Shown piece after piece: positions 1-48,952 of a stretch of DNA of 64,000 nt. The notes under the pieces are model-generated. The model was not told the origin of the DNA. It saw nothing but the letters and a program-made list of their open reading frames with translations, and searched no databases. Position numbers and translations under genes: made by a program. Numbering within the stretch: the stretch's first letter is position 1; every line of letters starts with the position of its first letter. The stretch lies in the NCBI RefSeq assembly GCF_058153355.1, contig NZ_CM177019.1, one strand, 5' to 3'.

Positions 1-1040
1 ATGCGCGACAAGGTCAGCAGGAAGTTGCCCGTCCAGCGGTAATCAATTTTCACGCCCTTCAGCTGCGGAAAGGTTTTCAGCAGTTTCGGCACAACAAGAC
101 GCTCAACGTCATCCGGGTCGCGCGCGCCGTAGACCACGCCGCCGCCGTACAGCAGGCGGTTATCGGCAGTCAGGCGGTAGTAATCAAGAAGATAGTTACA
201 GTCTTCCACACAGTAGTTTTTCGGGATCAGCGAACGGGCTAAATCTTCCGACAGCCGCTCGGTGGTGATCACCTGCGTGCCGCACGGCATGCTGCGTTTC
301 GCCAGTTCCGGCTCTACTTTATCGCCCAGATACGCGTTGCCTGCGACAATCACATACTTCGCCGTCACCTGACCATTGGCCGTGCGCACAACGGCGGGCG
401 TGGTGTGCTGGATCTGCGTCACCGCAGAAAGTTCATACACGCGCCCGCCGTTCAGGCGGATGGCATCGGCTTCACCAATGGCGAGGTTTAGCGGATGAAT
501 ATGCCCACCGCTGTGATCCAGCAGCGCACCAGTGTAGCGATCGCTGGCGACCTCGCGGCGAATAGCGTTGGCGTCCAGCAGCTCCAGCTGTTTATTGCCG
601 TAGCGTTCCCAGTTCTCTTTCTGCTCTTCGAGTGTGGCGAGTTGTTTATCATTCATCGCCACAAACAGGCCGCCGGGGCGATAGTCGCAGTCAATCTGAT
701 AACGTTTGATACGTTCGCGGATGATCTCGCCACCCTCGAACATCATGCTGCCGAGCATACGGGCGGTATCCATGCCGTAGCTTTTTTCGATAACGTCGAT
801 GTCGCGGCTGTAGGAGTTCACAAGCTGCCCGCCGTTGCGTCCGCTTGCGCCGAAGCCGATGCGTGAGGCTTCAAGAACCACCACGTCAAAGCCCGCTTCC
901 GCCAGATGCAGCGCGGAGGAAAGCCCGGTATAGCCGCCGCCGACCACGCAAACGTCGCAGGAAATCGACTCATTCAGCGTGTCGAATGGCGCGTATTTAT
1001 TCGCACTGGCGGCGTAATAACTGCTAGTATGTTCGGTCAT
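1..1040 (-). CDS. puuB: gamma-glutamylputrescine oxidase, N-terminal ~346 codons (C-terminus lies beyond window start)
   Basis: Reverse complement of 1038..1040 is ATG; N-terminus reads MTEHTSSYYAASA; abuts puuC stop; position in puu cluster. Confidence 0.85.
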   Translation of the reverse strand, partial: MTEHTSSYYAASANKYAPFDTLNESISCDVCVVGGGYTGLSSALHLAEAGFDVVVLEASRIGFGASGRNGGQLVNSYSRDIDVIEKSYGMDTARMLGSMMFEGGEIIRERIKRYQIDCDYRPGGLFVAMNDKQLATLEEQKENWERYGNKQLELLDANAIRREVASDRYTGALLDHSGGHIHPLNLAIGEADAIRLNGGRVYELSAVTQIQHTTPAVVRTANGQVTAKYVIVAGNAYLGDKVEPELAKRSMPCGTQVITTERLSEDLARSLIPKNYCVEDCNYLLDYYRLTADNRLLYGGGVVYGARDPDDVERLVVPKLLKTFPQLKGVKIDYRWTGNFLLTLSR

Positions 1041-1041
1041 T

Positions 1042-2529
1042 TCAGGCCTCCAGGCTTATCCAGATGGTTTTCAGTTCGGTGAATTTTTCAAGGGCGTGCA
1101 GGGATTTGTCGCGACCGTTGCCGCTCTGCTTATAGCCGCCAAACGGCACGGTCATATCACCGTCGTTGTAGTTATTGACGAAGACGGAACCGGCTTTCAG
1201 GCGGCGACTCATGCGGTGCGCGCGGGAGAGGTCGCGTGTCCATACCGCCGCGCCAAGTCCGTACTGGCTGTCGTTGGCAAGCTGTAGCGCCTGCTCTTCT
1301 GCTGTGAAACGCGTGACCACCAGCACCGGGCCGAAAATCTCTTCGCGGCTTAAGGACGCATTCGGGTCTACATCCACAAAGATGGTCGGGCCGATGGCGG
1401 CAGCCAGCTCGGCATTACGACCATCCAGCAGCAGTTGCCCTGTGCTTTCGCCTTCCCGAATAAAGCTATGCACCGAGTCAGCGTGGGCGCAGTCGATTAA
1501 GGTGCCCATGGTGGTCGCGGGATCAAGCGGATGCCCCGGCTGCCAGTTTTGCGCCTGCTGTTTTAACAGGGCTAAGAACTCATCGGCGATGCTCTCTTCC
1601 AGCAACAAACGCGTTCCGGCGATGCACACCTGGCCCTGGTTGTAGAAGATACCTGCGGCTGTCGCGCTCGCGGCTTTTTGCAGATCCGGGCAGTCAGCGA
1701 AAACGATGTTGGCGCTTTTGCCGCCCGCTTCCAGCCAGACGCGTTTCATGTTGCTGTCGCCTGCATCTTTCAGCAGTTGTTTCCCGGTGCGGGTCGAGCC
1801 GGTAAAGGCGATAACGTCGATATCGTTATGACGCGACAGCGCCTGGCCCGCTTCATGACCAAAACCCGTCACCACGTTCAGCACACCATCCGGCAGACCG
1901 GCCTCTTTCGCCAGCCCGGCAAGACGAATCGCACTAAGCGGTGATTTTTCCGACGGCTTCAGGACGACGCTGTTCCCTGACGCCAGCGCCGGGCCGAGTT
2001 TCCAGCAAGTCAGCAGCAGCGGGAAGTTCCACGGCACGATGGCGGCAATCACGCCGACCGGTTCACGCACGATCATCGCCAGCTCATGGCTACTGGTGGT
2101 CGCCACTTCGCCATACACTTTGTCGATCGCTTCGGCGTACCAGCGAATGGCGCGCGCCGCGCCGGGAATATCATCACGCAGACTGTGACGAATCGGTTTG
2201 CCGGTGTCGAGAGTTTCCAGCAGTGCCAGCTCTTCGGCGTTGGCTTCCATTAAATCGGCGAGTTTATTCAGTACCGCTTTACGTTTTGCCGGAGAAGAGT
2301 GTGACCAGTCGCCGCGTTCAAATACGCCGCGTGCTGCGCTCACCGCACGGTCGATATCGACGCTCTTGCCGCGGGCAATTTTCGCCAGCGGTGCCTGGGT
2401 GGCCGGATCAACGGTTTCAAAAGTTTCATTTTCCGCCGCAGCAGTATATTCACCGTTAATAAATAAGCGGGTTTCAATGGCGAGACTTAACGCTTTATCC
2501 TGCCAGTAAGCCAGATGATGAAAATTCAT
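1042..2529 (-). CDS. puuC: gamma-glutamyl-gamma-aminobutyraldehyde dehydrogenase (aldehyde dehydrogenase family)
   Basis: ORF track 1042..2625; start moved to internal Met (MNFHHLAYWQDK) matching known N-terminus; 495 aa. Confidence 0.9.
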   Translation of the reverse strand: MNFHHLAYWQDKALSLAIETRLFINGEYTAAAENETFETVDPATQAPLAKIARGKSVDIDRAVSAARGVFERGDWSHSSPAKRKAVLNKLADLMEANAEELALLETLDTGKPIRHSLRDDIPGAARAIRWYAEAIDKVYGEVATTSSHELAMIVREPVGVIAAIVPWNFPLLLTCWKLGPALASGNSVVLKPSEKSPLSAIRLAGLAKEAGLPDGVLNVVTGFGHEAGQALSRHNDIDVIAFTGSTRTGKQLLKDAGDSNMKRVWLEAGGKSANIVFADCPDLQKAASATAAGIFYNQGQVCIAGTRLLLEESIADEFLALLKQQAQNWQPGHPLDPATTMGTLIDCAHADSVHSFIREGESTGQLLLDGRNAELAAAIGPTIFVDVDPNASLSREEIFGPVLVVTRFTAEEQALQLANDSQYGLGAAVWTRDLSRAHRMSRRLKAGSVFVNNYNDGDMTVPFGGYKQSGNGRDKSLHALEKFTELKTIWISLEA

Positions 2530-2678
2530 TATGACTCCTGTTTCACGTGTATCAGATATATGCAGTTTGTGAACGTCAGGGCGCAGAGATCCCCGGGCCG
2601 TATGCCCGTTTATTTCTGGCGACATTCTTTATGGATTGCCGGGCGCATTGCGCTTACCCGGCTTACAGAACAAAAAGA

Positions 2679-3236
2679 TTAAAACGTGGTGGGCGTATGG
2701 GCGCTGATAATTCGGCAAATACCTGCCGACGTATTACTGAAACTGTGCGGGATGCCGGTATTAATGGCATAACTTTGCCCCGCGACGAGGTGGTAATCCT
2801 GACCATTAATCGTCAGAACAATTTCACCTTCCAGTACAGTGCCTATTTCCTCACCCTGATGCTTAATTCTTTCCCCAGTGGTTGTGCCCGGCTGGTAAGT
2901 TTCAAAGATCATCGCCAGCGTGCGATTCGGGTTACCGTTATGAACCAGCTTCATTGACACACCCTGACTGCCCATCTCAATTAAGTCGTCCTGATTAATG
3001 ACGACCTGTGGCTCATCAGGTTTTTCCGGCTCGGAAAAGAATTCCGAGAGTGACAGACCATACACCTTCAGCAGCTTTTGCAGCGTACTGATGGCAGGGC
3101 TGACTTTATCTTGTTCTATCGTACTGATAGCACTGTGAGTCAGCCCGGAGAGTTCGGCGGCACGACGTTGTGAAAGCCCCTGCTGCTGGCGGATTTCCGA
3201 CAAGCGTTTTCCTGGCGCCAGTCCCTCATCACTCAT
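2679..3236 (-). CDS. puuR: HTH/cupin transcriptional repressor of the putrescine utilisation genes
   Basis: 185 aa ORF; N-terminal HTH (RLSEIRQQQGLSQRRAAELSGL) plus C-terminal cupin; synteny. Confidence 0.9.
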   Translation of the reverse strand: MSDEGLAPGKRLSEIRQQQGLSQRRAAELSGLTHSAISTIEQDKVSPAISTLQKLLKVYGLSLSEFFSEPEKPDEPQVVINQDDLIEMGSQGVSMKLVHNGNPNRTLAMIFETYQPGTTTGERIKHQGEEIGTVLEGEIVLTINGQDYHLVAGQSYAINTGIPHSFSNTSAGICRIISAHTPTTF

Positions 3237-3262
3237 ATTTGCATTTCCTTAAACTGTAGTGG

Positions 3263-4027
3263 TCAGAGTCGCTGTTTTTCAGCGATATGGTGCTGACAAG
3301 CGGTGATAAAGCCCTCGAACAATATACGCGAAAGCGCGTATTCGCTACTGTTCCATTCCGGGTGCCACTGTACGCCCAGCGCAAAAGGATGATTGATGAC
3401 GCTAACCGCCTCAACTAAGCCATCCGGCGAGCGGGCTTCAACACGCAACCGTGAGCTAACGACCTTCGCCCCTTGTCCATGCAGAGAGTTTACCCAAAAG
3501 TTGCTACATTCAGGTAACAGTGCAGACAGCAATCCCCCCTCTTCAACCTGAACTTCATGCGACGGTGCATATTGCTGTTCCACCGGCAGTTCGGGATCTT
3601 CCCGATGTTCCAGCAATTCAGGCTGTTCGCACAGCTTGCGATGCAACGAACCACCGGTTGCCACCACCAGTTCCTGTAAACCCCGGCAGATGGCGAAAAT
3701 GGGGATGCGCCTTTCGAGTGCGGCATTAATTAACGCCATGCTCAGAAGATCACGCCCGGGATCGGCGTCAGGCTCATCGCCGTTTTCACCATATAGGTGC
3801 GGCTGCACATTGCTGGGACTACCAGGAAGATAAATACCATCGAGTTTCGGCAAAAGTTGTTCAAGTAATGACGGTTCCGCCAGCGCATGTGGCAGCGCAA
3901 TTGGCAAGCCGCCTGCGTGGATGATGGCATTCAGGTACTTTTCTTGCAGAGTCTGGGTCGCATGACCCTTAAGCCTGTTCCTGCACATTACGACACCGAT
4001 AACCGGATTGTTCATTATATTTTCCAT
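3263..4027 (-). CDS. puuD: gamma-glutamyl-GABA hydrolase (class I glutamine amidotransferase-like)
   Basis: ORF 3263..4039; start taken at MENIMNNPVIGVVM; synteny. Confidence 0.88.
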   Translation of the reverse strand: MENIMNNPVIGVVMCRNRLKGHATQTLQEKYLNAIIHAGGLPIALPHALAEPSLLEQLLPKLDGIYLPGSPSNVQPHLYGENGDEPDADPGRDLLSMALINAALERRIPIFAICRGLQELVVATGGSLHRKLCEQPELLEHREDPELPVEQQYAPSHEVQVEEGGLLSALLPECSNFWVNSLHGQGAKVVSSRLRVEARSPDGLVEAVSVINHPFALGVQWHPEWNSSEYALSRILFEGFITACQHHIAEKQRL

Positions 4028-4039
4028 GCTCAATCTCAC

Positions 4040-4238
4040 AAAGTGGACTAAATTATCGCCATTACTGCGCTTTAAATGACCTTTATGTTCAATATTTTTT
4101 CAATCTAGCAGCGGGTTTTCATTTTTGCAAACTTAATTTAACATTTGACAAACATTTAGTTTGCATACGGATTCGAATGGTGGTCATTATATTTTACGCT
4201 TTGATAACGAGCGGAAAACAAACCAAAGGCGAAGAATC
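4040..4238. promoter_or_regulatory. divergent puuA/puuD promoter region with PuuR-box-like AT-rich element (tggtcattatatttt, about 4178..4192)
   Basis: AT-rich divergent intergenic; element resembles the PuuR recognition motif from memory; not scored. Confidence 0.4.
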
Positions 4239-5657
4239 ATGGAAACCAATATCGTTGAAGTAGAGAACTTTGTTCAGCAGTCAGAAGAGAGGCGGGGTAG
4301 CGCCTTTACGCAGGAAGTGAAACGCTACCTGGAGCGCTACCCGAATACGCAATATGTTGATGTTTTACTTACCGATTTGAATGGTTGTTTTCGTGGAAAA
4401 CGTATTCCTGTTTCAAGCCTGAAGAAGCTCGAGAAAGGGTGTTATTTCCCGGCCTCGGTGTTTGCAATGGATATTCTGGGCAACGTAGTAGAAGAAGCGG
4501 GTCTGGGTCAGGAAATGGGCGAGCCGGATCGTACCTGTGTTCCTGTTCTCGGTTCCTTAACCCCATCTGCCGCCGATCCAGAGTTTATCGGTCAGATGCT
4601 CCTGACCATGGTCGATGAAGATGGCGCTCCCTTTGACGTTGAGCCGCGGAACGTTCTTAACCGCCTGTGGCAGCAGCTGCGCCAGCGCGGATTGTTCCCG
4701 GTTGTAGCGGTAGAGCTGGAGTTCTATTTACTGGATCGCCAGCGCGACGCTGAAGGGTATCTGCAACCGCCCTGCGCGCCCGGCACCGATGACCGCAATA
4801 CACAAAGTCAGGTTTACTCCGTTGATAACCTCAACCACTTCGCCGACGTGCTCAATGATATTGATGAGCTGGCGCAGTTACAGCTGATTCCGGCAGATGG
4901 CGCGGTCGCCGAGGCCTCGCCAGGTCAGTTTGAAATCAATCTTTACCATACCGATAACGTGCTGGAAGCTTGCGATGATGCGCTGGCACTAAAACGCCTG
5001 GTGCGTCTGATGGCAGAAAAGCATAAGATGCACGCCACTTTTATGGCGAAGCCGTATGAAGAGCACGCGGGCAGCGGGATGCATATCCATATCAGTATGC
5101 AAAATAATCGTGGCGAGAACGTGCTTTCTGACGCGGAAGGCGAAGATTCGCCGCTGCTGAAAAAGATGCTCGCCGGGATGATTGACCTGATGCCGTCATC
5201 AATGGCGTTGCTGGCACCAAACGTGAACTCGTATCGCCGCTTCCAGCCGGGGATGTATGTACCGACGCAGGCGTCGTGGGGCCATAACAACCGCACCGTC
5301 GCCCTGCGTATTCCCTGCGGCGATCGCCATAATCACCGCGTGGAATATCGCGTGGCGGGTGCCGATGCCAACCCGTATTTGGTGATGGCAGCGATTTTTG
5401 CTGGTATTTTGCATGGCCTTGATAACGAACTGCCATTACAGGAAGAAGTCGAAGGCAACGGGCTGGAACAGGAAGGCTTACCCTTCCCGATTCGCCAGAG
5501 CGATGCCCTGGGTGAGTTTATCGAGAATGATCACCTGCGCCGCTATTTAGGCGAACGCTTCTGCCATGTCTATCACGCCTGTAAAAATGATGAGCTGTTG
5601 CAGTTTGAGCGCCTCATCACAGAAACAGAAATTGAGTGGATGTTGAAAAACGCGTAA
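4239..5657 (+). CDS. puuA: glutamate-putrescine ligase (glutamine synthetase family)
   Basis: ORF 4161..5657; start at ATG 4239 (METNIVEVENF); 472 aa. Confidence 0.9.
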   Translation: METNIVEVENFVQQSEERRGSAFTQEVKRYLERYPNTQYVDVLLTDLNGCFRGKRIPVSSLKKLEKGCYFPASVFAMDILGNVVEEAGLGQEMGEPDRTCVPVLGSLTPSAADPEFIGQMLLTMVDEDGAPFDVEPRNVLNRLWQQLRQRGLFPVVAVELEFYLLDRQRDAEGYLQPPCAPGTDDRNTQSQVYSVDNLNHFADVLNDIDELAQLQLIPADGAVAEASPGQFEINLYHTDNVLEACDDALALKRLVRLMAEKHKMHATFMAKPYEEHAGSGMHIHISMQNNRGENVLSDAEGEDSPLLKKMLAGMIDLMPSSMALLAPNVNSYRRFQPGMYVPTQASWGHNNRTVALRIPCGDRHNHRVEYRVAGADANPYLVMAAIFAGILHGLDNELPLQEEVEGNGLEQEGLPFPIRQSDALGEFIENDHLRRYLGERFCHVYHACKNDELLQFERLITETEIEWMLKNA

Positions 5658-5959: not shown

Positions 5960-7345
5960 ATGGCTATTAATTCACCACTGAATATTGCTGCGCAACCCGG
6001 CAAAACCCGTCTGCGAAAATCACTGAAATTGTGGCAGGTCGTCATGATGGGCCTCGCCTATCTCACGCCGATGACTGTGTTCGATACCTTTGGCATCGTT
6101 TCCGGCATCAGCGACGGCCACGTTCCGGCATCCTATTTGCTGGCGCTGGCGGGCGTGTTGTTTACCGCGATCAGCTACGGCAAACTGGTTCGCCAGTTTC
6201 CGGAGGCCGGTTCGGCCTATACCTACGCGCAAAAGTCGATTAACCCGCACGTCGGATTTATGGTCGGCTGGTCATCGCTGCTGGATTATCTCTTTTTGCC
6301 GATGATCAACGTTTTGTTGGCGAAAATCTATCTCTCCGCCCTCTTCCCGGAAGTGCCGCCGTGGGTGTGGGTGGTAACCTTCGTCGCCATTTTAACCGCC
6401 GCGAATCTGAAGAGCGTCAACCTGGTCGCTAACTTCAATACCTTGTTTGTACTGGTGCAAATCTCCATCATGGTGGTGTTTATCTTCCTAGTGGTTCAGG
6501 GACTACATAAAGGAGAAGGCGTTGGCACCGTCTGGTCACTTCAGCCGTTTATCAGCGAGAACGCGCACCTGATCCCGATTATTACCGGGGCGACGATTGT
6601 CTGTTTCTCGTTCCTCGGTTTCGATGCGGTGACCACGCTTTCGGAAGAGACGCCGGACGCCGCACGCGTGATCCCGAAAGCCATCTTCCTGACGGCGGTA
6701 TACGGCGGCATTATCTTTATCGCGGCGTCGTTCTTTATGCAGCTGTTCTTCCCGGATATCAGCCGCTTTAAAGATCCGGACGCCGCACTGCCGGAAATCG
6801 CACTGTACGTTGGCGGCAAGTTGTTCCAGTCGATTTTCCTCTGCACGACGTTTGTGAACACGTTAGCGTCTGGCCTGGCGTCACATGCCAGCGTGTCGCG
6901 TCTGCTGTATGTGATGGGGCGCGACAATGTGTTTCCGGAACGCGTGTTTGGCTATGTGCATCCGAAATGGCGGACTCCGGCACTGAATGTCATTATGGTC
7001 GGGGTTGTCGCGTTGTCAGCGCTGTTCTTTGATTTAGTCACCGCGACAGCATTGATTAACTTCGGTGCTCTGGTGGCGTTTACCTTCGTTAACCTGTCGG
7101 TGTTTAATCATTTCTGGCGGCGTAAAGGAATGAATAAAAGCTGGAAGGATCACTTCCACTATTTGCTGATGCCGCTGGTTGGCGCGCTGACGGTGGGTGT
7201 GCTGTGGGTTAACCTCGAGTCAACGTCACTGACACTCGGTCTGGTATGGGCTTCATTAGGCGGCGCATATTTGTGGTATCTGATCCGCCGCTATCGCAAA
7301 GTGCCGTTGTATGAGGGTGACAGAACGCCGGTGAGCGAAACGTAA
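5960..7345 (+). CDS. puuP: putrescine importer (APC superfamily permease)
   Basis: ORF 5906..7345; start at ATG 5960 ([12 protein letters not shown]); multi-TM permease. Confidence 0.9.
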
Positions 7346-12512: not shown

Positions 12513-13319
12513 ATGATCGAAACGCTGCTTGAAGTGCGTAATTTAAGTAAAACGTTCCGCTACCGGACCGGCTGGTTTCGTCGTCAGACCGTAGAAGCGG
12601 TAAAACCCTTGAGCTTTACGCTACGTGAAGGCCAGACACTGGCGATCATTGGCGAGAATGGTTCTGGTAAATCCACGCTGGCAAAAATGCTGGCGGGAAT
12701 GATAGAACCTACCAGCGGCGAGTTATTGATTGACGATCATCCGCTGCATTTTGGCGATTATTCCTTCCGCAGTCAGCGTATTCGCATGATTTTTCAGGAT
12801 CCTTCGACCTCGTTAAATCCCCGTCAACGTATCTCGCAAATTCTGGATTTTCCACTGCGTCTGAACACCGATCTGGAACCTGAACAGCGTCGCAAACAGA
12901 TTATTGAAACGATGCGTATGGTTGGGCTGCTACCGGATCACGTCAGTTACTATCCGCATATGTTGGCACCCGGGCAAAAACAGCGTCTGGGGCTGGCGCG
13001 CGCGCTGATATTGCGCCCAAAAGTCATTATTGCCGATGAAGCCCTCGCCTCACTGGATATGTCGATGCGTTCGCAGTTGATTAATCTGATGCTGGAATTA
13101 CAGGAAAAACAGGGCATTTCGTATATTTATGTTACCCAGCATATCGGAATGATGAAGCACATTAGCGACCAGGTGCTGGTGATGCATCAGGGAGAGGTTG
13201 TCGAGCGAGGTAGTACTGCGGATGTGCTCGCCTCTCCGCTGCACGACCTCACTAAACGACTGATTGCCGGTCATTTTGGCGAGGCATTGACGGCGGATGC
13301 GTGGCGTAAGGACCGTTAG
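12513..13319 (+). CDS. sapF: Sap ABC transporter ATP-binding protein
   Basis: 268 aa; Walker A GENGSGKST. Confidence 0.92.
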   Translation: MIETLLEVRNLSKTFRYRTGWFRRQTVEAVKPLSFTLREGQTLAIIGENGSGKSTLAKMLAGMIEPTSGELLIDDHPLHFGDYSFRSQRIRMIFQDPSTSLNPRQRISQILDFPLRLNTDLEPEQRRKQIIETMRMVGLLPDHVSYYPHMLAPGQKQRLGLARALILRPKVIIADEALASLDMSMRSQLINLMLELQEKQGISYIYVTQHIGMMKHISDQVLVMHQGEVVERGSTADVLASPLHDLTKRLIAGHFGEALTADAWRKDR

Positions 13320-13326
13320 TGTTTTG

Positions 13327-13365
13327 CACCTCATCCTGACAGGCCCCCCCCCTCAGGATGAGGTG
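13327..13365. terminator. bidirectional intrinsic terminator hairpin between sapF and the convergent MFS gene
   Basis: 13 bp arms cacctcatcctga / tcaggatgaggtg around a C-run loop. Confidence 0.7.
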
Positions 13366-13369
13366 TTCA

Positions 13370-14533
13370 TTACTTTTGATTGTCGATTCTGGTGAGAGCA
13401 ACCAGCAATGCCAGCGTATAACACACCGTAATTGCCAGACTCATTTTTAACAGTGTTTCTCCGCCAATTCCCGACAATGGCGCGGCTATACCGCCGAAGA
13501 CAAACATGCTCATCCCCATCAACGCAGACGCCGTTCCAGATTCCTGCGTCCCTACTGCACTCATAGCCTCTGCCCCGCCAACAGTGCCGATGCCGCTACA
13601 AAATGCGATGGTGAAAAATAATGCCACCAGTGCCGGAATGGGCAATTGTACCCATGCGCATAAGACCGTGAGCAATGCACACAAAATTGCCGCTATCAGG
13701 CCACCTCGCAACAATGTCATCGCGTTAATCCGTCGCGCCAGGCGCGAGAAGATCCATGAAGCAATGATAAGTCCGATGCCGTTAAGGCCAAACACCAGGC
13801 TAAATTGCATTGGACTAAAGCCAAATTCCTTCTGCAACACGAACGACGAAGAGCCGATATACGCAAACAAACCGGCCAGCATAAAACTTTGAATCAGGCA
13901 AAAGCGCATAAAAAGGCGGTTCTGCACCACGCTTCGTCCGGTTAATAGCAATGATGAGCCCCTTTTATTTTCTGGCAAGGTCTCATTAATAAATAACAGG
14001 CAGCCCAGCAACAGTACGGTGCTAATTTCAGCCATTACCCAGAATAAAGTGCGCCAGTCAAAAGTGCTAACAATGTACCCGCCCAGCACTGGCGACAACA
14101 CCGGTGCCAGGCCATTCACCGTCATTAACAGCGCAAAAAACTGGGTCAACGTTACTCCCTGATATTTGTCACGAGCAATAGAACGAGAGAGCACCGAACC
14201 ACCCGCCCCCGCGATCCCTTGAATAAAACGCCAGACCACCAGCCAGTAAATATTGTTCGTTGTCGCGCACAAAATGGAAGAAACAATAAACAATAGCAAC
14301 GACAAGATTAACGGACGTTTACGCCCTATTTTGTCGCTCAGAGGGCCAAATAACAGTTGTCCGACGCCAAGACCGATCAGTGATGCAGTCAGGGTTAATT
14401 GCGTTATGGTCGTGGTTGCCGCCAGTTGCTCAGACATCTCCGGCAAAGCCGGCAAATAAAGATCGGTACACATCGGGCCGATACCGGCTAAAAGACCAAG
14501 AATCAATGCCCATGAAAGAGAGACTCTAGCCAT
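13370..14533 (-). CDS. MFS drug:H+ antiporter, DHA1 (Bcr/CflA-like) family
   Basis: 387 aa, about 12 hydrophobic segments; MFS signature GPLSDKIGRKRP; starts 9 bp after the OMF stop. Confidence 0.8.
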   Translation of the reverse strand: MARVSLSWALILGLLAGIGPMCTDLYLPALPEMSEQLAATTTITQLTLTASLIGLGVGQLLFGPLSDKIGRKRPLILSLLLFIVSSILCATTNNIYWLVVWRFIQGIAGAGGSVLSRSIARDKYQGVTLTQFFALLMTVNGLAPVLSPVLGGYIVSTFDWRTLFWVMAEISTVLLLGCLLFINETLPENKRGSSLLLTGRSVVQNRLFMRFCLIQSFMLAGLFAYIGSSSFVLQKEFGFSPMQFSLVFGLNGIGLIIASWIFSRLARRINAMTLLRGGLIAAILCALLTVLCAWVQLPIPALVALFFTIAFCSGIGTVGGAEAMSAVGTQESGTASALMGMSMFVFGGIAAPLSGIGGETLLKMSLAITVCYTLALLVALTRIDNQK

Positions 14534-14541
14534 ATTATTCC

Positions 14542-15915
14542 TTACTTGAGTGATGACATGCCGCCGCCCAGCGACTGCCAGAGCGTGATTCGGTTTGTAA
14601 AATCAGTCAGTTGCAGTGCCAGCAGCTCCTGCTGTGCGCTCCACAAGCTGCGCTGCGCCGTCAACACGGTCAGGTAATCACCAACACCCGCCTGATAGCG
14701 ACGCAAGCCAACATCGACCGTTTGTTGCTCAGCTTTAACATACTGGCGCTGTGCATCCAGTTGCTCTTCAAGCGTGGTCCGCCGCGCCAGTGCGTTAGCG
14801 ACATCTTTAAATGCGCTCTGAACGGTTTTTTCATAGGTGGCAATGAGCCCACGCTTTTGTGCTTCTGCGTAACGAAGCTGCGCCAGATTACTTCCGCCAG
14901 TGAACAGCGGTAATGTGACCGATGGTGCAAATGACCAGATCTGCATTCCGTGGCTGAACAACGACGACAATGCGTCACTGCCCACACCGGCACTGGCAGT
15001 CAGCGAAATCGTCGGGAAAAAGTTAGCCCGCGCCGCGCCAATATCTGCATTGGCGCTCTTCAAATTATGTTCCGCTTCCTGGATATCCGGGCGACGCAGC
15101 AGAACATCAGATGATACTCCCGCAGGAACCAGACTTATCATTTGTTCCGGCAGGCTTTCCAGTGTTCCCGGTAGCAGATTTTCCGCAAGCGTTGTACCTG
15201 CCAGTAAGTTCAGCGCATTTTTATCCTGCATCACTTGTGTCTGATAGCTGGCAACGCTGGCGCGCGCTTGCTGATAAACACTCATCGCCTCACTGACATC
15301 TGTCGCTGCCGCCGTGCCAACCTGTTGCTGGCGCTGGATAATTTTCAATGAGTTTTCTGCACTGGCCATCGTTTCTTTTGCCAGGGCCAGGTTGCTGTTA
15401 TCGGCCGCCAGTGTCAGCCAGGCGGTGCTGATTTCAGCAATCAGCGTTAAACGAGTGTTCTGGGCTGTAAATTCACTGGCAAGCCAGGTTTCCCGCGCCG
15501 CCCGAGATAAACTCTGATTACGACCAAACAGATCTAACGTATAACTGGACACCGTGCCGTCAGCCTCGGCAGTTGTTCCCGTACCATTCGCCAGCGAACG
15601 ACTGCGAGTCGAACTTAAGGCCGCATTCACCGTCGGAAATAACGACGCATTAGTTTGCCCATAGAGCGCCCGTGCTGAGTCAATATCAGCAATCGCTTTT
15701 TGCACATCGCGGTTACTGTTCAGTGCAATGGTTACTACCTGCTGCAATCGGGGATCGTGAATCACCTGCTGCCAGTCATGGCTGATTGCCTTCCCCTGGC
15801 CCTGTGCTCCCGGCAAGGTCGCCGGGATTGGGGATTCAGGCGTACTGTAGTGAGGATCGAGCGAGACACATCCCGCACTCAACAACACCAGAAAAATAAG
15901 AGAACGACGCAACAT
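14542..15915 (-). CDS. outer-membrane efflux lipoprotein, NodT/OprM family
   Basis: 457 aa; lipoprotein signal MLRRSLIFLVLLSAGC; OMF-like repeats; 4 bp after the RND stop. Confidence 0.85.
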   Translation of the reverse strand: MLRRSLIFLVLLSAGCVSLDPHYSTPESPIPATLPGAQGQGKAISHDWQQVIHDPRLQQVVTIALNSNRDVQKAIADIDSARALYGQTNASLFPTVNAALSSTRSRSLANGTGTTAEADGTVSSYTLDLFGRNQSLSRAARETWLASEFTAQNTRLTLIAEISTAWLTLAADNSNLALAKETMASAENSLKIIQRQQQVGTAAATDVSEAMSVYQQARASVASYQTQVMQDKNALNLLAGTTLAENLLPGTLESLPEQMISLVPAGVSSDVLLRRPDIQEAEHNLKSANADIGAARANFFPTISLTASAGVGSDALSSLFSHGMQIWSFAPSVTLPLFTGGSNLAQLRYAEAQKRGLIATYEKTVQSAFKDVANALARRTTLEEQLDAQRQYVKAEQQTVDVGLRRYQAGVGDYLTVLTAQRSLWSAQQELLALQLTDFTNRITLWQSLGGGMSSLK

Positions 15916-15918
15916 AAC

Positions 15919-18900
15919 TTACTCCTGACGGCGCGGTTTACCGGCAAACAAACGTTTCACCAGTACAAAAAACAGAGGAACGAAGAAAATGGCCAGTAAT
16001 GTAGCGGTCAGCGTGCCGCCAATAATGCCCGTACCAATGGCGATGCGGCTGTTCGCCCCTGCACCGGTTGCTATCGCCAGCGGCATTACCCCCGCAATAA
16101 ACGCCAGCGAGGTCATGATGATTGGGCGTAAACGAGTCTGCGCCGCGCGTAATGCCGCACGACTCAAGGAATAACCCTCTGCAACCGCCGCTTCAGCAAA
16201 TTCCACAATCAGAATGGCGTTTTTCGACGACAAGCCGATAGTAGTTAATAGCGCTACCTGGAAGTAAACGTCGTTGTTTAAATCACGCATCCAGGCCGCC
16301 AGCGCCGCGCCAAGAAGCCCCAGAGGGATCACCAGAATGACCGAGAACGGGACTGACCAGCTTTCGTACAGTGCTGCAAGGCAGAGGAAAACCACCAGAA
16401 TAGAAACTGCATACAGACTTAATGCCTGACCGCTCGCCAGTTTCTCCTGCAATGACAAACCACTCCAGGCCCAGGTTGTTCCCGCAGGAAGACTGTTTGC
16501 CAGTTCCTCCATTTTTGTCATTGCATCGCCGGAACTAAAGCCAGTCGCGTTTTCGCCCTGAATTTCATAGGCTGCCGAGCCGTTGTAGCGCACCAGTCTT
16601 TCCGGTCCATACTGCCAGCGGGTGGTCGCAAAAGCAGAGAATGGTGTCATGGCGTTATCGCTACCGCGCACAAACCATTTACCTAAGTCTGACGGCGCAG
16701 AACGAAATTCGCTGTCGCCCTGAATGTAGACTTTTTTCACACGACCACGGTCAATAAAGTCATTCACATAAGTACCGCCCCACGCACTGGACAGGGTGTC
16801 GGTGACATCATTCAAACTCAACCCTAATGACACCGCTTTATTGCTATCAATATCTACCTGCAATTGCGGCATTTGTGGCAAATCATTGGCGCGTACAGAA
16901 TGTAACTCCGGACTTTGATTCGCTTTTTCTATCAACTGATTACGCATTTGCAGCAGTGTTTCACGATCGGTTCCACCGTTAGCTAACAATTCAAACGTAA
17001 AACCATTGCTTTGGCCCAGCCCATCAACGGCTGGCGGCGTCATCGCAAATACCGTCGCATCACGAATTGTGCCCAGCTCTTTGGTAGCCCGTAGGGCGAT
17101 AGCCTGGGCGGTGTTTTCTGCCCCTTTACGTTGAGACCAGTTTTTCAACGAAACAAACGCCATCCCGGTGTTCTGTCCGCTGCCGCTAAAACTGAAACCA
17201 TCAACGGTAAAAATGACATCGGTATTTGCTTTCTCGTTAATCAGGAACCAGTCAACAATCTGGCGATTCACTTCTGCTGTACGGGCAGCGGTCGCCCCGG
17301 CCGGCAGCGTGTACTGCACCATGATTTCGCCCTGGTCTTCAGTGGGTAAGAAACTGCCCGGCAGTTTCCACATCATCAGGGCCATTCCACCACCCAGCAC
17401 GACATAAAGCCCCATCGTTCGGGCTGCACGGCGCAGGACATAAATTACGCCTCGCTGATATTTATCTTCAGTACGGCGGTAAAAGCGGTTAAATGCGCCG
17501 AAAAAGCCTTTTTTATGTGGCGGAACATGCTGGAGGACGGAACCGCACAGGGCGGGAGTCAAGGTCAATGCCACCACCACGGAAAGCAGCATTGCGGAGA
17601 TGATGGTGATGGAGAACTGACGATAAATTACGCCCGTAGATCCCCCAAAGAAGGCCATCGGCAGGAATACGGCTGACAACACCAGCGCAATGGCAACCAG
17701 TGCGCCAGAAATCTCGCCCATTGATTTTTCCGTGGCTTCACGCGCGGGCAACCCTTCGTCACGCATAATGCGTTCGACGTTCTCCACCACCACAATGGCA
17801 TCGTCCACCAGCAAGCCGATCGCCAGCACCATTGCAAACAACGTCAGGGTATTAATCGAATAGCCAAACAACGCAAGAACGCCGAATGTGCCCAGCCAAA
17901 CGACGGGGACAGCTAACGCCGGAATCAGTGTGGCACGCAGGTTTTGCAGGAATAAATACATCACGCAAACCACCAATACGATGGCTTCAAACAGCGTCTG
18001 AATTACGTCCTCTACGGAGATTTTAATAAATTCAGTGCTGTCTTTCGGGTATGCGATGTCGTATCCCTGCGGCATGTTCCGCTGGAATTCGGCAATCTTA
18101 TCCTTGACCAGCGTCGCCGTATTCAGCGCATTCGCACCGGGCGAAAGCATTACAGCAACCCCGGCAGACGGGTGACCGTTAAGTTTGCCGATAGCGGTAT
18201 AATCTTCACTGCCCATCTCAACGCGAGCCACATCTTTTATACGAACAACTGCGCCGTCTGACTGGCTTTTCACGATAATATTTTTGAACTGATCCACCGT
18301 CTGCAAGCGAGACTGCGCACGTACCGTTGCGGTCAGTTGCTGAGTATCCGGTGAAGGCAATGCCCCTATTTTCCCGGCAGTAACCTGCACGTTTTGCGCT
18401 TCAATAGCACTTTGCACGTCTGAAGGCATCAGCGAGTAAGACGCCAGTTTGGCCGGGTCGAGCCAGATGCGCATAGCGTATTCCGCGCCAAAGACTTGCA
18501 GACTCCCCACACCTTCAACACGCGCCAGGGGGTCCTGAACGTTACTGACCAGCCAGTCGGCGATATCCGAACTGGAGGCTTTGTCAGTGGTGTCATACAC
18601 GGCAGCAATCAGCAAAAAGTTGCTTTGTGATTTCTCCACCGTAACACCCGTTTGCTGCACTTCGCTGGGTAGGCGCGACTCCGCCTGCTGAATTTTATTC
18701 TGCACCTGAACCTGTGCAGTATCTGGATCGGTACCTTGTTCAAAGGTCACATTAATACTGACCGAACCATCAGAGCTACTGGTTGAGCTGAAATAGAGTA
18801 AATTATCAAGCCCAGTGAGTTGTTGCTCGATAACCTGAGTCACGCTGTTCTCCAGCGTTTCGGCAGAAGCACCAGTATAAGTGGCTGAAATTTTAATGGT

Positions 18901-19026
18901 CGGCGGTGCAACGTCAGGATATTGCGCGACGGGTAATGTGCGAATAGCCAGAATCCCCGCCAACATAATCAAAATGGCGATAACCCAGGCAAAGACCGGG
19001 CGGCGAACAAAAAAGCGCGAAAACAT
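15919..19026 (-). CDS. RND multidrug efflux permease, HAE1 (AcrB/MexB-like) family
   Basis: 1035 aa; N-terminus MFSRFFVRRPVFAWVIAILIML typical of AcrB-type pumps; 12-TM with two large periplasmic loops. Confidence 0.9.
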   Translation of the reverse strand: MFSRFFVRRPVFAWVIAILIMLAGILAIRTLPVAQYPDVAPPTIKISATYTGASAETLENSVTQVIEQQLTGLDNLLYFSSTSSSDGSVSINVTFEQGTDPDTAQVQVQNKIQQAESRLPSEVQQTGVTVEKSQSNFLLIAAVYDTTDKASSSDIADWLVSNVQDPLARVEGVGSLQVFGAEYAMRIWLDPAKLASYSLMPSDVQSAIEAQNVQVTAGKIGALPSPDTQQLTATVRAQSRLQTVDQFKNIIVKSQSDGAVVRIKDVARVEMGSEDYTAIGKLNGHPSAGVAVMLSPGANALNTATLVKDKIAEFQRNMPQGYDIAYPKDSTEFIKISVEDVIQTLFEAIVLVVCVMYLFLQNLRATLIPALAVPVVWLGTFGVLALFGYSINTLTLFAMVLAIGLLVDDAIVVVENVERIMRDEGLPAREATEKSMGEISGALVAIALVLSAVFLPMAFFGGSTGVIYRQFSITIISAMLLSVVVALTLTPALCGSVLQHVPPHKKGFFGAFNRFYRRTEDKYQRGVIYVLRRAARTMGLYVVLGGGMALMMWKLPGSFLPTEDQGEIMVQYTLPAGATAARTAEVNRQIVDWFLINEKANTDVIFTVDGFSFSGSGQNTGMAFVSLKNWSQRKGAENTAQAIALRATKELGTIRDATVFAMTPPAVDGLGQSNGFTFELLANGGTDRETLLQMRNQLIEKANQSPELHSVRANDLPQMPQLQVDIDSNKAVSLGLSLNDVTDTLSSAWGGTYVNDFIDRGRVKKVYIQGDSEFRSAPSDLGKWFVRGSDNAMTPFSAFATTRWQYGPERLVRYNGSAAYEIQGENATGFSSGDAMTKMEELANSLPAGTTWAWSGLSLQEKLASGQALSLYAVSILVVFLCLAALYESWSVPFSVILVIPLGLLGAALAAWMRDLNNDVYFQVALLTTIGLSSKNAILIVEFAEAAVAEGYSLSRAALRAAQTRLRPIIMTSLAFIAGVMPLAIATGAGANSRIAIGTGIIGGTLTATLLAIFFVPLFFVLVKRLFAGKPRRQE

Positions 19027-20147
19027 CAGGCATTGCCTCCATTAGCCTGAACTTCAACAGCCTTGACGGTCTGCCCTGAAGTGACTTTGGCAGAACCTTC
19101 AACAATCAGTCGGTCGCCGTTGTGCAGGCCGTTCAGCACCAGCCATTTATCACCATACGTTTCTCCCGTTTCGAGCGTTCGCTGCTCTACTTTATTGTCT
19201 TTATTCACCACCAGCGCAGTTGCATTGCCTTTAGCATCGCGCGTAACGCCCTGTTGAGGCGCGAGAATAGCGTTTTCCATCACGCCTTCATCGACACGAG
19301 CGCGAACAAACATTCCCGGTAATAACTGCTGTTGTGGATTGGGGAAAATTGCCCGTAATGTCACCGAACCGGTAGACTCATCCACCGCGACTTCGGTGAG
19401 TTCCAGACGCCCTTTTTCGCTGTAGGTTGTGCCATCTTCCAGAATAAGTGAGACGCTCATGGTGTCACTGTTGGTCGCCAGTGACTGTTTACGCAGACGT
19501 AATAAATCGACACTGGAGCGAGTGAGGTCGACATACATTGTATCCAGACCACGAATAGTCGTTAACGCTGTATCCTGCGACGCGGTCACCAGTGCGCCAG
19601 GGGTTACCGACGAAATACCAATACGCCCCGAAATCGGTGCGGTTACCGTGGTCCAGTCAAGATTAATGCGCGCAGTTTCCAGTGCGGCTTTTTTCGCCTC
19701 TACACTGGCTTTATCTTGTGCACAGGTAGACTGAGCATCATCAGCATCCTGTTGTGAAACACCATTCTCTTTCACCAGTCGGGCATAACGCTGCGCTTTC
19801 TGGCAATCGGCTTTTACCAGTGCCTGTGCTTGTTGTAATGCTGCCCGGGCTTCATTCCATGCAGCCTGATAACTGGCCGCATCAATCTGGTAGAGAGGCT
19901 GTCCAGCCTTGACCAGATCACCTTCCTTAAATAAGCGTTTCTGGATAATTCCCCCAACTTGCGGACGTACTTCAGCACTGAGCGCAGCACTGGTGCGTCC
20001 GGTTAATTCACTGACTACCGAAACCGGTTGAGATTTGAGCGTAACAACGCCGACTTCTGTTTCTGACGGGGATGAATTGTTACTTTGCGTATTATCACAA
20101 CCCGATAAGAGCAGCATTGCCACTACAGATGTTGCTATATACTTCAT
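19026..20147 (-). CDS. RND periplasmic adaptor (membrane fusion protein) lipoprotein
   Basis: ORF 19026..20180; start at MKYIATSVVAMLLLSGC (lipobox); stop overlaps the RND start. Confidence 0.85.
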   Translation of the reverse strand: MKYIATSVVAMLLLSGCDNTQSNNSSPSETEVGVVTLKSQPVSVVSELTGRTSAALSAEVRPQVGGIIQKRLFKEGDLVKAGQPLYQIDAASYQAAWNEARAALQQAQALVKADCQKAQRYARLVKENGVSQQDADDAQSTCAQDKASVEAKKAALETARINLDWTTVTAPISGRIGISSVTPGALVTASQDTALTTIRGLDTMYVDLTRSSVDLLRLRKQSLATNSDTMSVSLILEDGTTYSEKGRLELTEVAVDESTGSVTLRAIFPNPQQQLLPGMFVRARVDEGVMENAILAPQQGVTRDAKGNATALVVNKDNKVEQRTLETGETYGDKWLVLNGLHNGDRLIVEGSAKVTSGQTVKAVEVQANGGNA

Positions 20148-20231
20148 TATTTTCTCCAGGGTGAGAAATACCCTCCTCATTGAAATTAATGAGGATATGT
20201 CAGGGATATTCAGTTATAACGAACCCGCATC

Positions 20232-20247
20232 GCGAAATGAATTTCGC
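20232..20247. promoter_or_regulatory. 7-2-7 inverted repeat gcgaaat-ga-atttcgc upstream of the adaptor gene; candidate TetR operator
   Basis: Read directly; lies between the tetR terminator hairpin and the adaptor start. Confidence 0.45.
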
Positions 20248-20257
20248 AATGAAATAA

Positions 20258-20275
20258 GGGGGATTAATATCCCCC
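20258..20275. terminator. hairpin gggggat-taat-atccccc, T-rich on the minus strand; candidate tetR terminator
   Basis: Perfect 7 bp stem about 20 bp after the tetR stop (minus strand). Confidence 0.5.
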
Positions 20276-20295
20276 GCTATTGGTTAATTCTGTTC

Positions 20296-20862
20296 TTATT
20301 TATTTATCAACATACTAACAATATCCTGATATATTTCCTGCAGATGTTGTGGATCGCTTTTTTGCGGTGTTAAACGACGATAAACCGTACCTTCCATCAT
20401 GGTAGCAAACACTTCAACGCAGCAATGAATGTGATCGTCGCTAAGATGGGGATGCATTCTTTTCATATGTGCACAACCGTTAGCGAACATTCTGGCGTCA
20501 GCTTCTTCAAGCATTGCCATAACCCGCGGGTTGCGTGTGGCTTCTGCAGCCACTTCCAGCATCAGCGCGTCGTCGTCCTCATTTAAGGATTTACGCAAGG
20601 CAAGGACTTCCGGGAAGTGATCGGTACGCGCGTCAATGTCCATTTGGGCAATACGAAAGTCGATGATACGGCGAACCATCTCTTCAATAATGGCGTCTTT
20701 GTTGGCGAAGTAACGATATATCTGACCCACGCTAAGCTGAGCTTCGCTGGCAATTTGCGACATACTGGCGGCATGAAATCCGCAGCGACGAAAACACCGA
20801 CGGGCGGCGTTAATGATTTCATCCTGACGCTGTTTGTGGCGTATCTCCAGCTTGCTGGTCAT
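20296..20862 (-). CDS. TetR/AcrR-family transcriptional regulator
   Basis: ORF 20296..20961; start at MTSKLEI with AGGAG 7 nt upstream; HTH region AARRCFRRCGFHAASMSQIASEAQLSVGQIYRYF. Confidence 0.8.
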   Translation of the reverse strand: MTSKLEIRHKQRQDEIINAARRCFRRCGFHAASMSQIASEAQLSVGQIYRYFANKDAIIEEMVRRIIDFRIAQMDIDARTDHFPEVLALRKSLNEDDDALMLEVAAEATRNPRVMAMLEEADARMFANGCAHMKRMHPHLSDDHIHCCVEVFATMMEGTVYRRLTPQKSDPQHLQEIYQDIVSMLINK

Positions 20863-20887
20863 TTCTGTCTCCTGGCCTATCACTTGG

Positions 20888-20905
20888 TGAGAATGATCAT
20901 TCTCA
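20888..20905. promoter_or_regulatory. 18 bp perfect palindrome tgagaatgatcattctca, 26 bp upstream of the tetR start; candidate autoregulatory operator
   Basis: Read directly on the sequence. Confidence 0.4.
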
Positions 20906-21339
20906 TTTTTGCTAATTATACGTTTCTCCAAAGTAATGGAAAGTATTTTTATCTTATTCATGGTGCATATTCTGATAATGAAGAGATTGTGGAGATTCTG
21001 TGAAGATAGTTGACAATATTAAGTTGGGGTCAATTCATCAGAAAGGCAGCGACTTGTTGTCGCCAGTTCTGTTTTCATCATCAAACTTATCGGAGCTAAT
21101 ACGAATAGTTTCATAGTCAGATTCTATAAGATATTTCCCCAACCTACCCCTTGCAGGCGTCAAGAGTAGATAACGCAAAATGCTCTGTACCGCAGCTTCT
21201 CTCCGGTACAGAAAGCGCAACTATAGCCACCCACAGCCAGGTTGATTATAATAACCGTTTATCTGTTCGTACTGTTTACTAAAACGACGAATCGCCTGAT
21301 TTTCAGGCACAACAAGCATCAACAATAAGGATTAAAGCT

Positions 21340-22128
21340 ATGGGTTTTCTTTCCGGTAAGCGCATTCTGGTAACCGGTGTTGCCAGCAAACTGTCCATCG
21401 CCTACGGTATCGCTCAGGCGATGCACCGCGAAGGAGCTGAACTGGCATTCACCTACCAGAACGACAAACTGAAAGGCCGCGTAGAAGAATTTGCCGCTCA
21501 ATTGGGTTCTGACATCGTTCTGCAGTGCGATGTTGCAGAAGATGCCAGCATCGACACCATGTTCGCTGAACTGGGTAAAGTTTGGCCGAAATTTGACGGC
21601 TTTGTACATTCCATTGGTTTTGCACCGGGCGATCAGCTGGATGGTGACTATGTTAACGCCGTTACTCGTGAAGGCTTCAAAATTGCCCACGACATCAGCT
21701 CCTACAGCTTCGTTGCAATGGCAAAAGCTTGCCGCTCCATGCTGAATCCGGGCTCTGCCCTGCTGACCCTTTCCTACCTTGGCGCTGAGCGCGCTATCCC
21801 GAACTACAACGTTATGGGTCTGGCAAAAGCGTCTCTGGAAGCGAACGTGCGCTATATGGCGAACGCGATGGGTCCGGAAGGTGTGCGTGTTAACGCCATC
21901 TCTGCTGGTCCGATCCGTACTCTGGCGGCTTCCGGTATCAAAGACTTCCGCAAAATGCTGGCTCATTGCGAAGCCGTTACCCCGATTCGCCGTACCGTTA
22001 CTATTGAAGATGTGGGTAACTCTGCGGCATTCCTGTGCTCCGATCTCTCTGCCGGTATCTCCGGTGAAGTGGTCCACGTTGACGGCGGTTTCAGCATCGC
22101 TGCAATGAACGAACTCGAACTGAAATAA
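21340..22128 (+). CDS. fabI: enoyl-ACP reductase (NADH), SDR family
   Basis: 262 aa; [29 protein letters not shown]-terminus; ends AAMNELELK. Confidence 0.95.
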
Positions 22129-36596: not shown

Positions 36597-36736
36597 AGCT
36601 CCTCCTTAATGACAGGGTTGCGAAGCCCTGATTCTCTTCAGGGTGAATATTAAAGATAACACAAACATTGCGTAACGATTTGATAACAACCCAAATTGAT
36701 AAAAGAGGAGAAACCTTGTGGCAAAGCAAATGAAAA

Positions 36737-36752
36737 CCCCGCCGCAGCGGGG
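36737..36752 (-). terminator. hairpin ccccgc-cgca-gcgggg followed by T-run on the minus strand
   Basis: Sits 8 bp downstream of the 26-codon minus-strand ORF. Confidence 0.5.
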
Positions 36753-36759
36753 TCAGGGA

Positions 36760-36840
36760 TCAGTGAGTAATGATCCAGAGGAGTTCGGCCCAGAAGAGCA
36801 TCGACAGAGAAAATGCGCCCATCCAGGACCAATATTTCAT
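36760..36840 (-). CDS. candidate 26 aa hydrophobic small protein (MKYWSWMGAFSLSMLFWAELLWIITH)
   Basis: ATG to TGA, single TM-like peptide, followed by a terminator hairpin; too short for the ORF track. Confidence 0.3.
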   Translation of the reverse strand: MKYWSWMGAFSLSMLFWAELLWIITH

Positions 36841-36968
36841 ATTTGTGTTGATCATAGGCTACACCCTTAACGGTTATTACTTTGTGTTGAGATAACTCAA
36901 CCTGTTATTGCTGCGGTGTATTAAAAGCCCTTTAATTCATTAAAAATGGGTAATAAGAATGATGATAA

Positions 36969-48837: not shown

Positions 48838-48882
48838 ATGAAAGCGATTTTCGTACTGAAAGGTTGGTGGCGCACTTCCTGA
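48838..48882 (+). CDS. trpL: trp operon leader peptide with tandem Trp codons
   Basis: Encodes [14 protein letters not shown] then stop. Confidence 0.95.
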
Positions 48883-48924
48883 AACGGGCAGTGTATTCAC
48901 CATGCGTAAAGCAACCAGATACCC

Positions 48925-48952
48925 AGCCCGCCTAATGAGCGGGCTTTTTTTT
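48925..48952 (+). terminator. trp attenuator (3:4 terminator hairpin plus U-tract)
   Basis: agcccgc-ctaatga-gcgggct followed by tttttttt. Confidence 0.92.

Follow-up and report, generated by a model that had tools for sequence, protein, structure and literature searches.

The eefRABCD locus and its genes

The window analyzed here is a stretch of 64,000 nucleotides (nt) of contig NZ_CM177019.1 (assembly GCF_058153355.1). The six-frame list of its open reading frames (ORFs) contains five consecutive genes on the minus strand, coding for a TetR-family regulator, a periplasmic adaptor, a resistance-nodulation-division (RND) permease, an outer-membrane factor (OMF) and a transporter of the major facilitator superfamily (MFS), which are flanked by two plus-strand genes, sapF and fabI (Table 1). 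This order on a single strand and the location between sapF and fabI are those described for eefRABCD, the name given to the locus by Pugh et al. (2026, PMC12817139; bioRxiv 2024), according to whom the cluster was first noted in 2008 in Escherichia coli SMS-3-5. The locus is the eefRABCD operon on the E. coli chromosome, which others have already named, mapped and studied by experiment, and the arrangement is not new. A second paper on the operon is that of Shen et al. (2025, PMC12482432).

Megablast comparisons showed 99.4-99.5% identity over 8 kb to complete E. coli chromosomes whose annotation places these five genes at the sapF-fabI site, and the RefSeq gene order of the matching chromosome is puuP-ymjA-sapABCDF, MFS-OMF-RND-adaptor-TetR, fabI-yciW-rnb. 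The eef proteins of the window are 98.9-100% identical to those of annotated E. coli loci, and the DNA is 99.2% identical over 8 kb to that of strain Nissle 1917, which we take to be of sequence type 73 (ST73). The locus is therefore above the 97% identity used as a lower bound in the published survey, as judged through Nissle 1917 and the annotated loci. The eef genes of ST73 are 99.97-100% identical to those of ATCC 25922 (PMC12817139, Table 1).

Families were assigned with NCBIfam models and their curated cut-offs, which were exceeded by four of the five gene products (EefA to EefD). EefR, which is 98.9% identical to the WP_000202113-type EefR, gave weak TetR-type matches, to BetI models only. 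EefB matches the hydrophobe/amphiphile efflux (HAE1) model TIGR00915 over its full length and has the proton-relay residues D408, D409, K935 and T972, also reported in PMC12817139; its scores lie under the NCBIfam equivalog cut-offs of AcrB, AcrD and OqxB, and it is none of these three. EefC combines the OMF model with an N-terminal lipobox, as in NodT/OprM-type lipoproteins. EefD is 100% identical to WP_032302935.1, carries the MFS motif A (GPLSDKIGRK) at residue 63 and belongs to the Bcr/CflA subfamily. It is not a member of the named MFS equivalogs Bcr, TcaB, EmrD, MdfA and CmlA/FloR, since it stays below the cut-offs (in parentheses) of TcaB (313 bits; 475), Bcr PRK11102 (226; 303), EmrD (160; 479) and MdfA (58; 439). 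Judged from these scores, EefD is a separate lineage inside the subfamily. It has been placed in TCDB group 2.A.1.2, and a high-confidence homology model of this presumably 12-helix protein has been reported (PMC12817139).

The genes are tightly packed. The stop codon of eefA and the start codon of eefB overlap by 1 nt (CTGATG), eefB and eefC are separated by 3 nt (TAAGTTATG) and eefC and eefD by 8 nt (TAAGGAATAATATG), and the Shine-Dalgarno sequence of eefD, TAAGGA, overlaps the eefC stop codon. An earlier note on this DNA had described the same packing; its coordinates and overlap agree with the sequence, whereas the two junction lengths that it gives, 4 and 9 bp, both exceed the true value by one. 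Its unit, 13370-20147, holds the four exporter genes, but position 20147 is only the start of eefA; eefR and the promoter/operator region (20888-20942) were left out, and the transcription unit starts about 800 nt beyond that boundary.

Table 1. Features of the eef locus in the window
Feature	Position	Strand	Remarks
sapF	12513..13319	+	flanking gene
Hairpin, 13 bp, perfect	13327..13365		G9/C9 run in loop (nine G on minus strand); between convergent eefD and sapF
eef island	13327..21189		compared with eef-negative E. coli; 7.86 kb; replaced there by ~630 bp with ycjD
eefD, DHA1 Bcr/CflA-type MFS transporter	13370..14533	-	387 aa; TIGR00710 279 bits (cut-off 200.9)
eefC, outer-membrane factor lipoprotein (NodT/OprM type)	14542..15915	-	457 aa; TIGR01845 374 bits (cut-off 210); lipobox LLSAGC
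eefB, RND permease (HAE1 type)	15919..19026	-	1035 aa; TIGR00915 1552 bits (cut-off 940); NF000282 1500 bits, above cut-off
eefA, periplasmic adaptor lipoprotein	19026..20147	-	373 aa; TIGR01730 274 bits (cut-off 95); lipobox LLLSGC; start of the NCBI annotation pipeline (PGAP) confirmed
Hairpin GGGGGAT-ATTA-ATCCCCC, then TTATTTCATT	20258..20275	-	~20 nt past eefR stop; terminator-like in consensus scan
eefR, TetR-family repressor	20296..20862	-	188 aa; start agrees with PGAP (567 bp); mechanical ORF extends to 20961
EefR operator, perfect palindrome TGAGAATGATCATTCTCA	20888..20905		exact match to published motif TGAGAAN6TTCTCA
Operon promoter (putative)	20915..20942	-	-35 TTTCCA 20942-20937; 16-nt spacer; -10 TATAAT 20920-20915
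fabI	21340..22128	+	flanking gene

A consensus scan placed the top-scoring sigma-70-like site of the region, with 10 of 12 matches, upstream of eefR. A block upstream of the operator, CTTTyCA...ACGTATAAT, is conserved in Kluyvera, Raoultella, Enterobacter, Pseudocitrobacter and the contig L014, and we infer that positions 20915-20942 function as the promoter. Between the -10 box and the operator there are 9 nt, and the eefR start is 25 nt downstream of the operator. EefR was shown by electrophoretic mobility shift assay to bind the palindrome TGAGAAN6TTCTCA upstream of eefR (PMC12482432). The motif has one mismatch-free occurrence in the window (with up to one mismatch allowed, chance would give 0.17 matches per window). 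Of the first 13 loci collected, 10 have an exact copy in the equivalent place, and so do L014 and a metagenome contig, L016. A second candidate EefR site at 20162-20179 (TGAGAAATACCCTCCTCA, one mismatch), overlapping the ribosome-binding site of eefA, was set aside as probably due to chance; its left half is absent from all other genera and its right half is retained in L014 only. The genome-wide MAST search reported in PMC12482432 returned no second site.

The scan found neither promoter-like nor terminator-like sites at the eefC/eefD junction, and 8 nt are too short to hold one, which agrees with the absence of a separate promoter or terminator between the OMF and MFS genes implied by the earlier note. 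Downstream of eefR, a hairpin followed by a T-rich run is found at the equivalent position, with different stems, in E. albertii, Pseudocitrobacter, Enterobacter cloacae, L014 and Raoultella. The hairpin in the window is probably a leaky terminator or attenuator that would set the ratio of regulator to pump; the published amplification across the junctions (below) shows read-through. The other hairpin, between eefD and sapF, has no U-tract on the eefD side; its predicted energy is -31.3 kcal/mol when read from the minus strand and -29.5 kcal/mol from the plus strand. It is probably a two-way transcript end, and the homopolymer in its loop could vary in length among strains.

Elsewhere in the window, Rfam models matched the enterobacterial small RNA STnc180 (36726-36928, minus strand, 203 bits) and the tryptophan operon leader (48859-48952, plus strand, 93 bits), both of which are expected in this chromosomal region.

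A probable single transcript and two export modules

The view that an RND pump and an MFS transporter belong to one TetR-controlled unit is borne out by the promoter and the exact EefR operator in the window together with published experiments. Reverse transcription PCR (RT-PCR), which the earlier note had suggested as a check, had already been carried out in strain ATCC 35218, and all intergenic junctions were amplified from cDNA (PMC12482432). In the same study deletion of eefR raised expression of eefA 83-fold, eefB 28-fold, eefC 43-fold and eefD 27-fold, and eefA to eefD were the most upregulated genes in RNA sequencing of the mutant. By sequence identity, the operon in the window would be cotranscribed and repressed by EefR in the same manner.

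Minimal inhibitory concentrations (MICs) of cells carrying the MFS gene, the RND genes or both are in print as well. They rose 2- to 4-fold with pBReefD and 8- to 32-fold with pBReefABC, those with pBReefABCD were equal to those with pBReefABC for six compounds, and in heterologous hosts EefABC was active without EefD and EefD without EefABC (PMC12482432). Together with the distribution of the locus, which has been published too, this covers all the checks suggested in the earlier note.

Very probably, then, the chromosomal eefRABCD operon is read from one EefR-repressed promoter and encodes a pump, EefABC, and an exporter, EefD, that are parallel and separable modules and not an obligate relay. 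According to this model, EefR bound to the palindromic operator just past the -10 box would block the single promoter upstream of eefR. Loss or release of EefR would allow one transcript to extend through the leaky hairpin after eefR into eefA, eefB, eefC and eefD. EefABC would then form an AcrAB-TolC-like tripartite RND pump with its own outer-membrane channel, while EefD would work on its own in the inner membrane, as a one-component MFS exporter driven by protons. The common regulator implies that both exporters probably respond to the same signal or substrate class. The published basis of the model comprises EefR repression, cotranscription, export by each module when overexpressed and the lack of MIC synergy (PMC12482432, PMC12817139); the promoter, the attenuator, a shared natural substrate and any sequential transport are deductions of ours.

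Several points weigh against this model. The two papers are at odds on drug phenotypes: the MIC rises of PMC12482432 have no counterpart in PMC12817139, where deletion or expression of eefABC or eefD caused no change in antimicrobial MICs and had effects on dyes only. In the latter study, ethidium efflux became slower when only eefD was deleted, even in cells that had AcrB, which leaves room for some functional interplay between EefD and EefABC. The promoter and the attenuator were assigned by consensus matches and conservation, not from mapped transcript ends. Lastly, our sampling of loci was anchored on EefD, so that it gives no share of eefABC clusters that lack eefD.

The slower ethidium efflux is also an argument for an obligate relay, in which EefD would move substrates from the cytoplasm to the periplasm for capture and expulsion by EefABC, and the operon would encode one pathway instead of two pumps. 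Co-regulation, the tight gene packing and the retention of eefD downstream of eefC across several genera fit such a scheme. It is also in keeping with general knowledge that RND pumps bind what they export in the periplasm or at the inner membrane's outer leaflet, and that single-component pumps cooperate with AcrAB-TolC. However, the MICs with pBReefABCD were exactly those with pBReefABC, and each module works alone in heterologous hosts (PMC12482432); in an acrB mutant eefABC reduced ethidium accumulation and the addition of eefD caused no significant further drop (PMC12817139). Moreover, Kluyvera has eefR and eefD without the pump genes and E. cloacae has eefRABC without eefD. We consider the relay, which the earlier note had put forward, unlikely, as it has been tested without finding support. 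The published tests covered drugs and dyes only, not the natural substrate. Sequential action of EefD and EefABC on a natural substrate of host origin, in which case the missing synergy would be due to unsuitable test compounds, is unlikely too.

On balance, the interpretation given in the earlier note is partly supported: it was right on cotranscription and TetR control and lacks support on the relay and on the rarity of the arrangement.

Gene arrangements and location of the operon

Related loci were gathered through EefD (contig scan, protein search and contig look-ups) and DNA similarity, and seven proteins of the window were placed on them by tblastn. The contig scan with exact peptide patterns of EefD gave five loci and missed relatives of about 67% identity, and it was extended by the protein search. 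The order R-A-B-C-D was found in three different genomic contexts. The first is that of E. coli, E. albertii, E. whittamii and Escherichia sp. MOD1-EC7003, where eefD is each time followed by sapF; three of these loci extend to the start of fabI, which comes before eefR, and the fourth (L004) ends short of it. The second is a Pseudocitrobacter metagenome-assembled genome (L008), with identities of 88% for EefB, 82% for EefA, 77% for EefC, 67% for EefR and 66% for EefD, and the third is the contig L014, with 90-94% for EefB, 88% for EefC, 85% for EefA, 82% for EefD and 73% for EefR. At the Pseudocitrobacter locus the eefC-eefD spacer (6843-7000) has been extended to 157 nt by a hairpin-forming repeat that is present twice (CCCTCTCCCTGAGGGAGAGGG) and resembles a repetitive extragenic palindromic (REP)-type element inserted within the operon.

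The other arrangements lack one or more genes. In Klebsiella pneumoniae (L011), Raoultella terrigena (L012) and L016 the order is A-B-C-D without eefR, yet the promoter is kept together with an exact, orphan operator about 200 nt upstream of eefA (L011 2132-2149, L012 2133-2150, L016 2116-2133). The orphan operator suggests that eefR was deleted at these loci; the pump would have been left with no cognate repressor, and the H-NS silencing on which it reportedly depends would be consistent with this. E. cloacae (L003) has R-A-B-C without eefD, and yicS follows the OMF gene. Two Kluyvera loci (L009 7251-9164, L010 7252-9164) have only R-D: the promoter and the operator are kept, eefR and eefD are 66% and 67% identical, and no pump genes lie between them, the 141-nt spacer holding a terminator-like hairpin with a T-run. 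Here eefABC would have been lost and the regulator-MFS pair would be a self-sufficient unit. The orphan operator and the R-D unit are not mentioned in the accessible text of PMC12817139 or PMC12482432. These observations come from one to three loci per genus, and they concern the regulation of the operon, not sequential transport. Finally, L015, an 11-kb contig assigned to E. coli, has a solitary homologue of EefD (1-4528; 76% identical, 404 aa) roughly 1 kb downstream of a gene for a Tn3-family transposase, which may be a mobilized copy of the MFS gene.

The lone copy beside the transposase gene, the long spacer with hairpin repeats in Pseudocitrobacter and a GC-rich hairpin in the 48-nt eefC-eefD spacer of Klebsiella and Raoultella are what could be expected if the MFS gene were an unrelated neighbor with its own expression, merely adjoining the RND cluster. 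For E. coli this has already been contradicted by the RT-PCR product spanning the junction and the 27-fold rise of eefD in the eefR deletion mutant (PMC12482432), and the 8-nt gap is free of promoter-like and terminator-like sites. Furthermore, eefD follows eefC in loci from at least five genera, and in Kluyvera it is still paired with eefR and the operator. The identities of EefD vary in step with those of EefA, EefB and EefC across the loci, which fits co-inheritance. We give the unrelated neighbor hardly any credence; as the arrangements indicate, the MFS gene has long belonged to the operon and each module can persist without the other. As to whether it always travels with the RND cluster, the MFS gene is retained in several genera but is absent from the E. 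cloacae cluster and stands apart from the pump in Kluyvera. Such arrangements are natural "deletion mutants" that could guide work on substrate and cooperation.

The E. coli phylogroups B2, D, E, F and G carry eefRABCD at the chromosomal site between sapF and fabI, where A, B1 and C have ycjD (PMC12817139). Of the 5426 complete E. coli genomes compared by megablast, 2037 have the intact locus. Another 1759 genomes gave some match, in which, among the matches listed, only the last ~110-119 nt of sapF were aligned. The outer edge of the hairpin between eefD and sapF is the left boundary of the island, in whose place eef-negative E. coli has the ycjD segment. This 630-bp segment has no similarity to the island detectable by blastn (word size 7, E up to 0.01). 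Remnants of eef in eef-negative E. coli, proposed in Figure 3 of PMC12817139, were thus not detected by blastn, which neither confirms nor excludes a loss. The sapF gene as a whole is 96.4% identical to that of an eef-negative strain, and its last ~110-119 nt (13200-13319) show 88-91% identity by megablast in the K-12-like genomes listed, a low value for a core gene of this species; the border of the island may be where most of the divergence lies.

The dependence of presence on phylogroup, and the occurrence of the locus in three places in the complete E. coli genome set and in three PLSDB records labelled as plasmid, could be read as signs that the locus is a mobile resistance island carried by plasmids and acquired recently, a view suggested in PMC12482432, but this is extremely improbable: the site is constant and the same in E. 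albertii and E. whittamii, GC content and GC at third codon positions of the five eef genes are similar to those of sapF and fabI, no transposase or integrase lies at the borders, and the plasmid-labelled matches are non-mobilizable. The one such record examined (NZ_CP141085.1, 385 kb, non-mobilizable) has the chromosomal flanks sapBCDF and fabI-yciW-rnb, and plasmid carriage was rejected as a sign of mobility; the others are CP054253.1 (252 kb) and NZ_CP134663.1, whose 4.9 Mb is the length of a chromosome. These records look like mislabelled or misassembled chromosomes, which makes the conclusion drawn in print, that plasmids spread the locus, look unsafe. As already published, eef is the seventh RND system of E. 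coli, found only in the phylogroups most often tied to infection and absent from K-12.

Comparison with known systems

The closest systems are the eefRABCD loci of SMS-3-5, ATCC 25922 and ATCC 35218 (PMC12817139, PMC12482432), with the same genes, order, site and operator. With about 99% DNA identity to the carrier chromosomes and nothing of substance different, the window has another allele of this locus. The eefABC genes of Klebsiella aerogenes and K. pneumoniae, which are silenced by H-NS and have been linked to gut colonization and acid tolerance (as cited in PMC12817139), encode the orthologous pump, and an MFS gene also follows eefC. The proteins of K. pneumoniae, Raoultella and L016 are about 87% (EefB), 76-83% (EefA) and 67-75% (EefC) identical to those of the window. 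These Klebsiella-type loci differ by the lack of eefR, the promoter and exact operator being kept, by an eefC-eefD spacer of about 48 nt with a GC-rich hairpin, and by their context, with a GNAT gene upstream and a murQ-like gene, a phosphotransferase system (PTS) gene, eamA and yicS downstream.

In mexAB-oprM and ttgABC, a regulator, an adaptor, an RND permease and an OMF lipoprotein are also encoded together, and the best named match of EefA is MexA (404 bits). Unlike eef, they have no MFS gene and their regulator is divergent, whereas eefR is the first gene of the eef transcript. The mdtABCD-baeSR cluster of E. coli and Salmonella shares with eef an RND operon in which an MFS gene is the last transporter gene; MdtD is not known to be of the Bcr/CflA type. 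It differs in that MdtBC is heteromultimeric and uses TolC, and in that it is activated by the BaeSR two-component system, in contrast to the TetR repression of eef. The classical hard-wired two-step arrangement is that of czcCBA with czcD and similar metal-resistance clusters of Cupriavidus, in which an inner-membrane exporter feeds the periplasm for an RND pump; there, the substrates are metal cations, the partner is a cation diffusion facilitator (CDF) and not an MFS protein, and the RND pump is of the heavy-metal efflux (HME) type. Given mdtABCD, and czcCBA with czcD, the premise that hybrid arrangements of this kind are nearly unseen was too strong. The mdtABCD operon of E. coli K-12 encodes an MFS protein, MdtD/IceT, without which the RND components still confer drug resistance (PMC4462101).

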